This document shows positions 3,261 to 61,408 of a DNA stretch of 64,000 nucleotides, one piece after another. The DNA is taken from positions 4,464,001 through 4,528,000 of the forward strand of contig OX597819.1 of the NCBI GenBank assembly GCA_951406725.2. Direction: 5' to 3'. Below the pieces are notes generated by a model. That model searched no databases, was not told where the DNA came from, and saw only the letters and a list, made by a program, of their open reading frames with translations. Source of the DNA: Octopus vulgaris (Eukaryota). A program made the translations under genes and the position numbers. Each line of letters starts with the position of its first letter. The first letter of the stretch is position 1.

Positions 3261-4687
3261 TAGGACCACTTTCATCAAACAAAAGCAGAAAAGGAAACCT
3301 TTGCAAATAAAGCTGTCACTAAATTCACTGTTCTTGAAAGCGAAAATATTAAAGTCGTTCTATTATGCAGCCATGGAACAATGCACATCGAAAGGCAATC
3401 TCACACTTCGTTGTCAGCTCCAAAGGTAATTCCTGTTGTTTACATTTTTAGTCTTATGAAGATTTCTTTTTATGGCATCTTCTAATGATTTCGAAATACA
3501 ATGCAGCAGGAAAACGTTTGCAATCTCGCTGCAAGGTGTTCAAGTATCGCATTGTAAATATAAATGCTGTTGCATCGTGAGACGCATATTTCAATAATCT
3601 AAACTCTAAATCTGTGTATGTGTGCATGTGTATGTATATATATGTGTGTATGTATGTGTGTGTGCGTGCGTGTGTGTTATAGCATAGCTTAGTATTCTTT
3701 TCTATATATTGTAGGTTAAGCGTAAGTATGGTTTTATTTCAAATGTATCTAAAATCTATAAAAGTAAATACTGTTAAATATAATTATATTCAACCTTTAG
3801 TTGCAACTTTAATTTCACAAATGCCTGCTCTGTCCGACGGCCTATAATGAAAAAACATGCCTTACTTCATGAAGGCTTCGAGATCTCACAATGTTATGGG
3901 TTAATATGATAGTATACGATAATATTCTTATCATAAGGGAACATTAGAATATTGGTTCAAGGCTCGAGTGCATCTCCAAGGTGTTATACATTTATAACAG
4001 AGGCGATTTCTTAATATTAGCATAAACCTGTGTGTCTGTCAAGATATTTAAAGATGGTAGCAAATCCGATATTTGAGATAATACGGAAAACTGATATAGA
4101 TGCGATAACAAGACAGTCTAAAGGCATTATTGAAGACGTGTGATAATAATAAAACTGCGAAATGTGTTGTCTTTATTATGACTTTGATAACGGTATCCTT
4201 GTAGATATAAATTTCTACACGGTTTGCATTCTACTCAGTATGTATACTGTATTAGGAAAACCATACTTAAATATATGTGTGTATATGTATGTAAATATAT
4301 AAACATGCATACGAAACACGTAAACACATATACACATATACTCATATATCAATATAGATATAATGAGTATATAGGGATAAATTATTCAGGCAGGTACCGT
4401 ACGAGCACTCAAGTACAGACAGGGTTCAGACTAACTGCATCAAACGGAAGGAAGCACCTAGGATTGCTTAGGGTAAGCAATCCCATTGTAATTCATCTGG
4501 TGAGTAAATCCTGGGTTCACGTCACTGGATTATGAATATTTACGGGAGTGGAAATCAAAGACAATTATAAAGAATACAAAGACTGTTTTTTTTTTTTCTT
4601 TTAATAATTTATATATAATTAACTGTGAAAATAAAAATTAAAAGAAAATAAGCATGAAGATGTACCAGTGTACATAATATATGTATG

Positions 4688-7150: not shown

Positions 7151-8300
7151 TAGGGTGTTCGGAAAGTAATTGCATCTTACCAGGAAGGATATAAAAACGA
7201 ATGTAAACTACGTTTATCTGAATAGAATGTAATCACCATCGTTTTCAACGACTGCAGCCCAACGGGAAAGTCACTTTTTTTTATGCCACATTCAAAGAAA
7301 CTTATTTCTTTTCCTGTAAAAATATCTAGAAGACTGTTTTCAACTTCTCTGTTTCTGAATGTTTTACTTCTCATAAAGTGTTCTAGTGTTCCGAACAGAT
7401 GGAAATCCGTATGTGCTAAGTCAGGTGAGTATGGAGAATGTGGAAGAACTCCCGATTCTAACGACCTTGTTTTGAAGAGTGTTGATGTGCATTGTCATGC
7501 TGGAGAATAACGCCTTTTCTGTTTCCCAAAGCTAACCACTTTCGACGTAATTTTTCATTTACATGATCAAGTTGATGACAATAGACATCTGCATCGAAGG
7601 TCTTTCCATGTTCCAGGAGTTCGTTACGGCCGATACTTGTCATGTTCCACCGAGCACAGAGCAAGAATTTTTGTGGATGGAGGTTTGGTTTTGGTCTTAG
7701 CACTGCTCTCTCATTACATGATAACCATTGTCTTTTTCGTTTTCTGTTGTAATGCAAAACCTATTTTTCATCACCTGTAACAATGCACTGCAGAAATGAA
7801 AGGCTGTTATTACTGGTTAGAAGACTACTGCAGATGGTGAAACGTTGTCTTTTTTTCTCAAGCGTAAGCTCATGCGGAACCCAAATTCCCCCTTTGCATG
7901 TTTTCCCAATTTGCTTGAGATGTTCATGGATAAATGAACATGAAACATTAAATTTTTGTGCCAAATATCTGGTCCTTTGACATGGATCTGATACAATGGT
8001 CTCATTTAAAATGTAGTCATTCAGAGTGGATGGTCTTCAAGAGCGACGCTTGTCGGATATGTCATAATCACCATCTCTAAACATTTTAAACCACAACTGA
8101 AATGTACGAGCTTTCACTGCATCTGGATACACTTCACAAATGTTTTTCATTGCTTCTGTAGCAGTACTTATCTTTCGAAACTACCGGATAGAAGAGATGA
8201 TATACTATTCCTAGACAATTCCCGGCCATTCGACCTTGGCTCTGACGTGATTGATTCATATTTCATATTGGTGAAAAACGCAAATAATTTCCGACACCCT
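7151..8300 (-). mobile_element. Mariner (DD34D) transposon with pseudogenised transposase
   Basis: Motifs WVPHEL, IVTGDEK, ILQHDNA, PYSPDLAHTDFHLF. Imperfect TIRs AGGGTGTTCGGAAAGTAATTGC / GCAAATAATTTCCGACACCCT in TA context. Confidence 0.93.
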
Positions 8301-49692: not shown

Positions 49693-49698
49693 TGATTA

Positions 49699-50313
49699 AT
49701 CTTTTCTACTTTAGTCACAAGGCCCGACATTTGGGGGAAGGGGGACTAATCGATTAGATCGACCTCAGTACGCAACTGGCATTTAATTTATCGACCCTGA
49801 AAGGAGGAGATGCAAAGTCGACCTCAGCAGAATTTGAACTCAGAACGTAATGACAGACGAAATACCGCTAAGCATTTCGCCCGTGCTAACGTTTCTTGTT
49901 TCTTTACTGCTCACAAGGGGCTACACACAGAGGGGACAAACAAGGACAGACAAACGGATTAAGTCGATTATATCGACCTCAGTGTGTAACTGGTACTTAT
50001 TTAATCGACCCCGAAAGGATGAAACGCAAAGTCGACCTCGGCGGAATTTGAACTCAGAACGTAGCGCCAGACGAAATACATATTTCTTTACTACCCGCAA
50101 GGGGCTAAACACAGAAGGGACAAACGAGGACAGAGAAACGGATTAAGTCGATTATATCGACCCCCGTGCGTAACTGGTACTTAATTTATCAACCCCCGAA
50201 AGGATGAAAGGCAAAGTCGACCTCGGCGGAATTTGAACTCAGAACGTAACGGCAGACGAAATAAGGCTACGCATTTCGCCCCGCGTGCTAACGTTTCTGC
50301 CAGCTCGCCGCCT
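49699..50313 (-). mobile_element. Three-unit nested SINE family C array
   Basis: Units at about 50081-50313 and 49897-50080 (both with Tx1-type tail) and 49699-49896 (standard tail). Confidence 0.9.
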
Positions 50314-50846
50314 TACTGTTAGTAATTAATAACAGCAAAATGCTAAATTTCACTCTAAAATAAAAGTAAGAAATTATATCTGTTACTTGAGGAGATTCAG
50401 TGATAATATAAACTTTTGATGATATCTTTGGGTACAGTTGACAATTAGATATTGGTTTCACGATAGAGTTTTCATACACTTTCCTACCAAATTTGATTGA
50501 ATATATATTTTTCAATTGTAAATCCGTTAAAAATAATTGTAGGGTCAATAAAATAAACGTTATTAATGTATATAAATAAATGTAGATATTGCGATAGAAC
50601 AATAGGTAATCTTCCAACAAATCGAGGCATATGCGTAGCTTCGTTTGCTATTTGAAATCTTTGGAAATTACAGAATATCAAAATTTCTATCTTCTCATCC
50701 CTTGATATATGAAACTTTTGTATGAAACACAAGAAATCAAAACATAGGAGTAAGTGATCAACATTGATAGGAATGATACCAATCTTTATCTCTCGTTTAA
50801 AATTGTAAAGCGTGAGGTCAGCTTCGCCGAGGTCGTCTGCTTTGTG

Positions 50847-58317: not shown

Positions 58318-58601
58318 TTTATTTTACTTTTTCCAGTCATTAAACTGCAACCATGCTGGAGCACCGCCTTGAAGAATTTACAGTCGAATGAGTCGATCCC
58401 AGTACATATTTTATATTTTAAAAGCTTGGCACTTATTCTATCGGTCTCTTATGCCGAGCCGCTAAGTTACGGGGACATAAACACACCAATACCAGTTGTC
58501 AAGAAGTGGTGGGGGACAAACACTGAAACAAAGACACACACACACGCACGCACGCACGCACGCACACATACACATGGCTGTGTGGTAAGAAGCTTGCTTC
58601 C
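58318..58601 (-). mobile_element. 3' half of a family B SINE followed by a short plus-strand family B head
   Basis: CCATGCTGGAGCACCGCC..CCGCTAAGTTACGGGGAC, then TGGCTGTGTGGTAAGAAGCTTGCTTCC. Confidence 0.75.
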
Positions 58602-59720
58602 GCGCATGCGTCACCCAAAGTGAGGCGATGTACTCAGACTTTGGCAGGTCTTCAACAGAGGGAGAGCTGGTAAAGGCGGTCATAAAGATGGACGGAGTAT
58701 TGGAGAAGACAAGGAGTTTTGCTGAGGCCACGGAACTGAAGCGAAGAGAGCTGGACTTGGCTAGTTTGAAGGTGTATGAGAAGATGGTACAGAAGGTGGG
58801 AGGTGACGTGAAGTTGTCGCCCCCCAAAGGAATTATGGAGAGGATGGAGAGAAAAACGATCACCTATAAGGTGTTCTCGTTAAAAGGAAAAAGGCTGAGG
58901 AGGTGGAAGCTGAAACGGAAAACGCGCAAAGGGAGCGGTCAAAGGAAGTGACGTTATATAACCAAAGTAAGGAGACATGGGACTATGGTCGTCCAATTTA
59001 GGAAAGTAGAAGAGGCGAGGAGGATGGAGAGTATGGCGGTGAAAACAGAGGAAGTAGTGGTTCTGCCCACATACCTTGGAAGTAAGACTTCCAAGGTAAG
59101 GGTAGAAGCAACCCCACCTGATATAGAAGTGGCTTTGGTGGGGGGCGGCTGTCTTTCAGGCCACAGAGACGGAGGAAGGAGGTTGGAAAGGGAAGACATT
59201 GGAATTGATTATACAGACGGGGGAGGAACAACTAGAGAGTTTGGCAGAGACGGTGACGCTGGGGGAAATTGTGCTGAGAGTGTGGGTAGAAGGCAGAGTA
59301 CCACGATGTTTTAAATGTGGCCAAAAGTGCCACATTAGAGCGTACTGCCCTCTACAGAGGACAATAGTAGAGGAAACAGTTGTGGAGACGGAGAGAAAAG
59401 AGAAGAAGAAAAGACAGGCGGAGGAAAGTAGGAAAAGGAGGAAGAATGGAGAATAACCGAGAGTAGAAAGAAGAAGAGAAAAAAGAAAGAACACTGAGTG
59501 TGATTAGTGTGATGTGGTACCCCAATGCAACTCCATCCCACCCAAGACCACTCAGACCTACCCTTCCCATACAGGCATCAAACCCACCCAACCCATTTCC
59601 CCACAAGAAAAAAAGAAGAAAGAGCAGACACCTTTTTTTCATATTTGTGTTTTTCATACTGGCCCCACACACTTGTATCGTCCCTTCAATGTTTGGTCCC
59701 CTGTGAGCAATAAAGAATTA
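58602..59720 (+). mobile_element. Tx1/L1-type ORF1-only element (HAL1-like), frameshifted
   Basis: Overlapping ORFs 58628-58951, 58985-59314 and 59199-59456 end in zinc knuckle CFKCGQKCHIRAYC (CX2CX4HX4C). No ORF2 follows. Tail TGTTTGGTCCCCTGTGAGCAATAAAGAA. Confidence 0.8.
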
Positions 59721-59721
59721 A

Positions 59722-60084
59722 AAATCGTTAGCACGCCGTTCTGAGTTCAAATTCCGCCGAGGTCGACTTTGCCTTCCATCCTTTCAGGGTCGATAAATTT
59801 AATACCAGTTACGTACTGGGTCGATATAATCGACTTAATCCGTTTGTCTGTCCTTGTTTGTCCCTTCTGTGTTTAGCCCCTTGTGGGTAGTAAAGAAATA
59901 GGTATTTCGTCTGCCATTATGTTCTGAGTTCAAATTCCGCCAAAGTCGACTTTGCCTTTCATCCTTTCGGGGTCGATTAAATATGTACCAGTTATGCACT
60001 AGGGTCGATGTAATCGACTTAATCCGTTTGTCTGTCCTTCTTTGTCCCTTCTATATTTAGCCCCCTGTGAGCAATAAAGAAATA
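59722..60084 (+). mobile_element. Two tandem SINE family C units with Tx1-type tail
   Basis: Each ends TTAATCCGTTTGTCTGTCCTT..TTTAGCCCC.TGTG.G.A.TAAAGAAATA. Confidence 0.9.
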
Positions 60085-60085
60085 A

Positions 60086-61408
60086 ATATTCTTTTTACTT
60101 TAAGCACAAAGCCCGAAAGTTTGGGGGAGGGGGCCAGTCGATTAGATCGACCGCAGTACGCAACTGGTACTTAATTTATCGATCCCGAAACGATGAAAGG
60201 CAAAATCGACCTCGGCGGAATTTGAACTGAGAACGTAACGGCAGACGAAATACCAATTTCTATATTGCCCACAGGGAGCCAAACACAGAAATGATCAAAA
60301 TAACTTATTGGGATCAGTAATACGCTATGATTTTACATAAAATATGAATATAAAAACTATATAAAATATTAAAATTTGAATGTAATTAACAATACAAATG
60401 TAGCGATGATCAGGCCACGCTCCGACCCCACAAGCCCCGATCTATCGCTGGTGCCTTTTTTGTTATTCTTTTATAGCCCATTCACACAGTTTCTTGCACG
60501 CACAACACTCGTGCAACATGCTTCCATCTCTTTTTGAACATACTCTCCGACAGACACCTCTTCTCCAGCCACACCTTCCTTTTCAAATGAATAGTAAAGA
60601 TGATCGTAAATCGTGGCCGGTGATAAAGTTGCCTGTCTTAATCTCTTTTATCCTAGTCTTCCATACTACCTCTTTCGCTATTGCTACAACCGTGAGAAGA
60701 CAATTCTTACCTTCGTTCGTTAAAACTTCCGGTGGATCAATTTTTATAACTGACTTAGTCGACAGCCGTACTCTTCCTTCGCCGGACAACAGGTGTTCAG
60801 CATAAACCCACATTTCAGATATCTGTCCCTCAATAGCATGAGGGACGGTTTCCCTGTCTCCCCCGTATCTTGCGAGCTTATCCCAAACGGGCAAGTCACC
60901 TCTCTAACAACACCGTCTTCAATTGTTATCTTATCTTCGTACTTTATCAAATCATTTTTGTTTGTCGATAGCCGCCAACGCAAAACCTTTTTGTTTATTT
61001 TCTTCTGTTTGAAGACTTTTCACGTCAATATTCCTCTTTGCAACAGTACACATTGATGGCTGAGGAAATTCACTTTCAGAAGAATCCAAAATATCACCAA
61101 ATATTAAACCATCAATCTTTTTTGCCTCCGTATCGGTTGACGACTCTTCGCCAGACGAAGTTACACTTTTTGGCATCTTGCCAGCAATTAATGTTTCCCC
61201 CACAGGGGAAAACACACGATAGTTTTCGAACGAAGACTATCACACAAATAATTATAACAGGAAATAACACAAAAACAGTCAATAGAAACTTGCACTTACT
61301 ATACAGACGCACTCCAATAATAATTACCAATAAATCCAAACTCACACAGACGAAATATCGCTAAGCATTTCGCCCGGCGTGCTAACGTTTCTACCAGATC
61401 GCCGCCTT
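60086..61408 (-). mobile_element. Family C SINE split by a LINE insertion (SINE parts 61347-61408 and 60086-60254)
   Basis: The two halves rejoin into one consensus-like SINE. CAGACGAAATA(C/T)C is duplicated at 60242 and 61347. Confidence 0.88.
60255..61346 (-). mobile_element. Internally deleted Tx1-clade LINE
   Basis: ORF2 C-terminal-like peptide PVWDKLARYG..ETVPHA..VAIAKEVVWKTR. The 5' part resembles a UTR plus ORF1 start (MPKSVTSSGEESS..). Tail CTGTGTTTGGCTCCCTGTGGGCAATATAGAAAT. Confidence 0.8.

Follow-up and report, generated by a model that had tools for sequence, protein, structure and literature searches.

A number of non-LTR retrotransposons (LTR, long terminal repeat) with an APE-type endonuclease insert at specific sequences, such as Xenopus Tx1L in Tx1D, Keno at U2 and Kibi and Koshi at microsatellites (PMC4494074, PMC1950540), and the targets and features of Tx1 elements have been listed (PMC8869645, PMC3747384, PMC5203782, PMC1950540). 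What is said here of published systems refers to the portions of these papers drawn on. In crocodilians, the long interspersed element (LINE) Tx1-Mar and the short interspersed element (SINE) SINEU-3 share a target in Mariner, where they form tandems (Kojima, 2015; PMC4494074). The octopus is known to contain L1-Tx1 elements and abundant SINEs (PMC13282606, PMC8967140; target data are absent from the portions drawn on), and octopus SINE names are available (PMC4824008). Here we describe a window of 64,000 nucleotides of the Octopus vulgaris genome (G000:C6:4464001-4528000, part of 2.8 Gb) in which the 3' tails of retroelements run into the heads of SINEs. Two SINEs are involved, SINE-1 (called family C in an earlier note on this DNA), which comprises S, the standard form, and V, a variant, and the unrelated SINE-2. 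A, C, D, F and G are LINE families (LINE family C differs from the family C of the earlier note), and B is a family with only the first open reading frame (ORF1). We judge it quite probable that family A is an autonomous LINE of L1/Tx1 type which enters the SINE-1 head at a single position, duplicating 13 bp of the target, and that the proteins of its lineage are the likely carriers of V into SINE-1 copies.

As with Tx1-Mar and SINEU-1, -2 and -3, a target within some other transposon is used by both a LINE and its partner SINE, different families keep to different ones of two preferred positions, and SINE tandems are split by the target duplication. However, the target there is Mariner-N4 (others being LTR elements, Harbinger and microsatellites) and the SINEs have a small nuclear RNA (snRNA) head without the target (PMC4494074), whereas in the octopus the site lies in a SINE head and the SINE that is mobilised, V, itself contains this site. 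With Tx1L, Keno, Kibi and Koshi the octopus elements have in common the sequence-specific insertion of an APE-type non-LTR element, and two sibling families, D (at a mariner) and H (at (TC)n), repeat known target types; the targets given for those four are a DNA transposon, an RNA gene and simple repeats, with no SINE among them. SINEs inserting next to SINEs are familiar from Alu, which inserts into Alu tails. The SINE tandem arrays of bivalves and squamates, for which unequal recombination between target duplications has been proposed (PMC11481361; Vassetzky 2023 as cited there), are also head-to-tail, but no site-specific LINE is named in the portion drawn on, while here the unit boundary is the LINE site in the head. 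In the literature searched, which lay outside Repbase and supplements (those of PMC13282606 and PMC4494074 may list targets), there was no LINE targeting a SINE head and no SINE carrying its own target. The nesting habit is absent from that literature, the closest known case being crocodilian Tx1-Mar/SINEU-3. A SINE head differs from the RNA genes, simple repeats and DNA or LTR transposons used by known target-specific LINEs, and the system shows concretely how tandem arrays of SINEs, and satellites derived from SINEs, could originate; repeat libraries of this genome would split or fuse such arrays.

Family A and its site in the SINE-1 head

The window contains six such tails, three on the plus strand (59696-59717, 59876-59897, 60060-60081) and three on the minus strand (60279-60258, 50105-50084, 49921-49900). 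The earlier note had reported that five of the six continue at once into the SINE-1 head at two positions, and this was confirmed, as were the three tails that it quoted, all exact in the window. Three tails continue with (G/T)GTATTTCG (head position ~52), two with A(G/A)AA(A/T)CGTTAGCACG (position ~17) and one with neither; the position-52 rule is satisfied by chance at 24 of 20,000 random positions. The flanks are also non-random genome-wide, as the same note had predicted, with 23,672 of the 52,328 exact matches to the V1 tail continuing AGGTATT. Each head position has its own LINE family, ~52 being used by A and ~17 by C.

The autonomous LINE with the shared tail postulated in that note does exist. 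Family A is an element of L1/Tx1 type that targets the SINE-1 head, ~5.2-5.35 kb long, with a CCHC motif in ORF1 and an APE endonuclease, a reverse transcriptase (RT) and a zinc finger in ORF2 (PF00098, above cut-off, in ORF1 and PF03372, PF00078 and PF13966 in ORF2). This arrangement, with the zinc motif C-terminal, is that of the L1 group of non-LTR elements, and the closest solved structures for both RT and endonuclease are those of L1 ORF2p (E 1e-33, vs. 3e-20 for R2). Older full-length copies are ~5.2 kb long with the site motif at both ends, while a young subfamily, A3, has nine full-length copies of 5.32-5.36 kb, in three of which (L359-L361) a 1134-aa ORF2 is unbroken, making the proposal directly testable. 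The family is scarce, with 5 exact 31-mers of one tail form and some tens of copies seen.

Of the 40 best long DNA matches to family A, 38 terminate at one position of the SINE-1 head, the other two being a match masked after GGTATT and one without a tail. When loci were chosen by ORF2 protein, blind to the flank (five of the 30 overlap with the DNA set), 28 of 30 ended at the SINE-1 site, with one truncated and one off-target. The 13-bp duplication is present at both ends in all nine young full-length A3 copies, each splitting a different host SINE (eight V and one standard SINE-1), and each host has its own flanks. The ends of these LINEs are 99.1-99.3% alike and the two host halves 89.7% and 91.7%; at L364, inner and outer duplications are nested and a private base is common to both inner copies. 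We take the greater divergence of the host halves, the two SINE types, the individual flanks and the nesting at L364 to mean that the LINE inserted into pre-existing SINEs. The part of the proposal that concerns the LINE is almost certainly real, largely as claimed.

Two further observations concern the A3 copies. In nearly all of them (L359-L367) head position 52 is a C on either side, and this holds for the standard-SINE host too; roughly a fifth to a quarter of V and 0/25 S share this head form, and L365 and L366 suggest that donor sequence has overwritten the host head. In four public sequencing runs searched at L364, the joints that skip the LINE could stem from any SINE copy that is intact, and none of the pieces extended across the unique flank.

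Variant V, its arrays and the competing explanations

V is non-autonomous and often lands at non-SINE sites; at least 45% of its 52,328 exact tails are followed by the family A site. In 40 evenly spaced 10-kb stretches (400 kb) V tails were followed by site 52 in 13/25 and by site 17 in 2/25 cases, vs. 1/21 each for the tails of standard SINE-1, and 17 of the first 30 exact V1 matches meet a head site. The V2 tail has 7,909 exact matches; tails of this type meet site 17 in 6/30, site 52 in 1/30 and other DNA, often TATA runs, in 23/30. Direct insertion of V into the site is seen at L098 (a 23-bp duplication with private bases), L121 and L287, and of a 5'-truncated V at L124. At ordinary sites, duplications of 12-23 bp were found in 41/88 (one an artefact) vs. 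4/260 controls, mostly beginning GGTAT, GATAT, TATAT or AGAA, and these sites are a loose form of the two SINE-1 head sites. V also lies inside the unrelated SINE-2 site (355 junctions), where the host head stays upstream in 23/30 and the joins often have microhomology, whereas in SINE-1 a site remnant is kept in just 4/142 full-length first units; from this contrast we infer that the 5' end is joined by homology.

The ~45 bases at the 3' end of V are shared with the LINEs (75-82% to families A, C, D, F and G), and it is junction position only, not the tail, that singles out family A as the driver of V. Motifs resembling A and B boxes can be seen by eye in the SINE head, in which ARAGORN and Rfam found no tRNA and Rfam no snRNA match. 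A possible hairpin with a stem of 3-4 bp and a loop of 4-5 bases recurs in the tails (91% of cells paired), but compensatory changes are absent and the z-scores never fall below -1.9.

Insertion might proceed as follows. The APE endonuclease would nick the SINE-1 head and the RT would start at the shared tail, probably aided by pairing between the target and read-through RNA. The V cDNA contains the target and could be joined at its 5' end by homology within the first ~64 bases, leaving no spare head and producing a whole promoter and two sites, and the direct repeat would grow into longer arrays by unequal exchange. Siblings with the common tail type would use other sites, C position ~17, the ORF1-only B SINE-2 and D a mariner. 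The notion of a dependent SINE that carries its own target stands insofar as V has the site and inserts there, but its tail is one that the entire local radiation of LINEs shares; the self-amplification also proposed in the earlier note is to be qualified, with V being non-autonomous, often landing elsewhere and forming arrays partly by local duplication. With these limits, we find it reasonably likely that the SINE part of the proposal holds.

Among 112 arrays of V, 86 begin with a whole head and 34 end in a standard SINE, so that these 34 were not made by unit duplication; the V-standard arrays have several downstream subtypes and mixed head forms. Near-identical arrays of 5 to 10 units occur, and at L266 (G000:C1:4676257-4677960) ten V units, 99-100% alike, with a standard SINE at the end, look like a nascent SINE-derived satellite.

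Several results weigh against the picture drawn so far. Of the eight family A copies that lack the 5' end, seven show no trace of a SINE head where their 5' junction lies; later deletions are common in this setting, though not demonstrated for those seven. The SINE-1 site follows just 7/30 V2-type tails. The V1 tail is no nearer to family A than to its siblings (36/48 vs. A1, 40/49 vs. F) and A is rare beside >52,000 V, and for both reasons a driver other than family A is possible. In likeness, 34/97 neighbouring V-V pairs lie above the 99th percentile for random pairs, a sign of local duplication, and the junction counts therefore overstate insertion events. A V-specific head form opens 5/27 V-standard arrays and is absent from 24 solo standard SINEs, which indicates that joining sometimes takes place away from the duplication; dimer masters would yield the same. 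Shared variants provided a weak test of the duplications (7/49, against 21/344 for the bodies), upstream units were younger at p=3.5e-5 in a biased set only (unselected, 22 vs. 8 of 35, p=0.06), and a divergence test of whether the head derives from the target gave no correlation.

One could suppose, accepting a site-specific LINE, that V seldom targets itself and that a few dimer or multimer masters, reverse-transcribed whole, gave rise to most of the V arrays, with local duplication adding to them. The whole heads that start 86/112 arrays, the few site remnants, a reference V copy without a run of four T (which makes read-through plausible), V-V dimers within SINE-2 sites at 3/30 loci, the near-identical arrays and the V-specific heads ahead of standard SINEs would all fit. 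Against it stand the four direct insertion events, the mixed head forms and several downstream subtypes of the V-standard arrays and the 63/97 neighbouring pairs that are not near-identical, and the C52 head is rarer in V-V first units (4/43) than in solo copies (29/100; p=0.01); we regard this explanation as improbable. Even less credible, indeed very improbable, is that LINE and SINE move as a composite element with an inherited, not chosen, junction. The missing upstream head in most 5'-incomplete A copies is what one would then expect, but host halves far more diverged than the LINE, of two SINE types and with their own flanks and in some cases their own outer duplication, largely refute it for the young A3 subfamily.

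A less radical departure would be that targeting works mainly by RNA-DNA pairing, with transcripts that continue past the tail into the adjoining SINE head and prime at matching DNA, and an endonuclease that has a short preference only. Despite their different targets, A3 and family G have nearly the same endonuclease sequence in the beta-hairpin loop region, off-site V insertions share just a 4-5 base motif, and the C52 of A3 copies on both sides could also be read in this manner, although it equally fits an endonuclease that reads C52. The entry of V into the non-homologous SINE-2 site and, with clean duplications, into ordinary DNA speaks against pairing, which we consider rather unlikely and which would alter the targeting step and leave the target unchanged. 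Insertion of family A, and with it V, at a site chosen in the SINE-1 head remains our preferred reading. A broader idea, that a Tx1-type radiation split SINE promoter heads into private sites and that one SINE, with a borrowed tail and a carried target, closed the loop, is somewhat doubtful. If true, each V insertion rebuilds a promoter and doubles the sites, a feedback that would have helped a burst to well over 50,000 SINE copies from tens of LINEs, and nature would have supplied, in the intact young ORF2, a site-specific integrase whose safe site is present in many copies.

Sibling LINEs and the ORF1-only family B

In trees made with FastTree (L177 was left out for its short cover), a single local clade with support 1.0 and a common tail type unites families A, C, D, G and others, sister to P0001-type proteins and then to proteins of limpet, sea cucumber, lancelet and fish. 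For the nearest public relatives, no flanking sequence was found. No named Tx1 protein was among the matches, and it is anatomy and behaviour that suggest Tx1 membership of the family A lineage, namely the CCHC zinc knuckle in ORF1 (PF00098), which is consistent with Tx1 (PMC5203782), and sequence-specific insertion with target duplication. For family C, site 17 is no more than a preference (5 distinct copies among about a dozen). The targets of other siblings are the start of a mariner for D, (TC)n for H and other repeats for F and G, and sibling endonucleases with different targets (ORF2s 72% identical) are material for testing specificity. Family D tails lie directly before the ATG of a broken mariner transposase (L056-L058, L060, L191, L192, L202, L203), an echo of Tx1-Mar, and sibling tails precede the microsatellites (TC)n and (ATT)n (L225:778-860; L166, minus strand, tail near 7529-7581). 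Family G (L368-L378, e.g., L370:1559-6817) is very young and high-copy, with an unbroken 1132-aa ORF2, and is often found in ~5.27-kb tandems at a fixed site of a repeat, with two target variants and ORF1-only elements at that site. Such B-like elements accompany families F and G at their targets; at L092 (2160-2240 and 6338-6410) a family F LINE and a B-like element both end at one target. Long open frames of other retroelements were seen at L147:2861-5116 (-), L094:629-1894 (+) and L079:3740-4903 (-), among them what we take to be another LINE-type RT and an RT with a GIY-YIG-like end.

The ORF1-only element had been placed in the same targeting unit by the earlier note, and here the data point elsewhere. 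Family B (~1.5 kb; ORF1 39% identical to that of family A over 190 aa, E 1e-50) sits in the SINE-2 head, at 24/29 5' junctions and 19/22 retained tails. These counts are from the loci of the search with the window copy; two other queries contained ~50 and 11 target bases, which biases their 3' tallies. The target duplications are ~15 bp long, with variants shared within a locus (L024, L031, L040), and at L023, L036 and L038 family B forms head-to-tail tandems with the SINE-2 target between units. The family's own tail is of the lineage type but has diverged (25/48 to A1). All 45 other family B matches stop at or before query base 1032 of the 1116 of the window copy, and since the family carries another tail, that of the window copy is foreign; its last ~87 bases are the LINE family C tail, and the copy appears to be a deletion chimera. 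No autonomous partner of B was found among 30 tail-selected, 5 pattern and 30 tail-plus-site loci.

Composition of the window

Features of the window around the six tails (positions are those of the window)
Feature	Coordinates	Strand	Remark
SINE-2 head remnant	58576..58601	+	ends in 15-bp family B target duplication (58587-58601); equivalent 5' junction in 24/29 other B copies
Family B ORF1-only non-autonomous element	58602..59633	+	broken ORF1 and CCHC knuckle; own 3' end lost
LINE family C 3' tail	59634..59720	+	probably joined to B by a deletion
SINE-1 variant V	59721..59900	+	entered at head position ~17 (family C site); deletion within head; V1 tail
Second V unit	59901..60084	+	starts from the family A site (head position 52); V2-type tail; terminal
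Host standard SINE-1, 3' part	60087..60254	-	position 52 to tail; target duplication 3' copy at 60254-60242
Family A LINE copy	60255..61346	-	internal deletion of ~4 kb
Host SINE-1 head, 5' part	61347..61408	-	13-bp target duplication 5' copy at 61359-61347 (one mismatch)
Array outside the noted span	49697..50316	-	a full V, a V starting at position 52 and a standard SINE-1 starting at ~17

The deletion in the family A copy fuses ORF1 (~base 480) to the end of ORF2 (~base 4445, in the numbering of the 5151-base copy in L080). At 60084-60087 the V array of the plus strand and the host S of the minus strand abut by their tails, forming an inverted pair.
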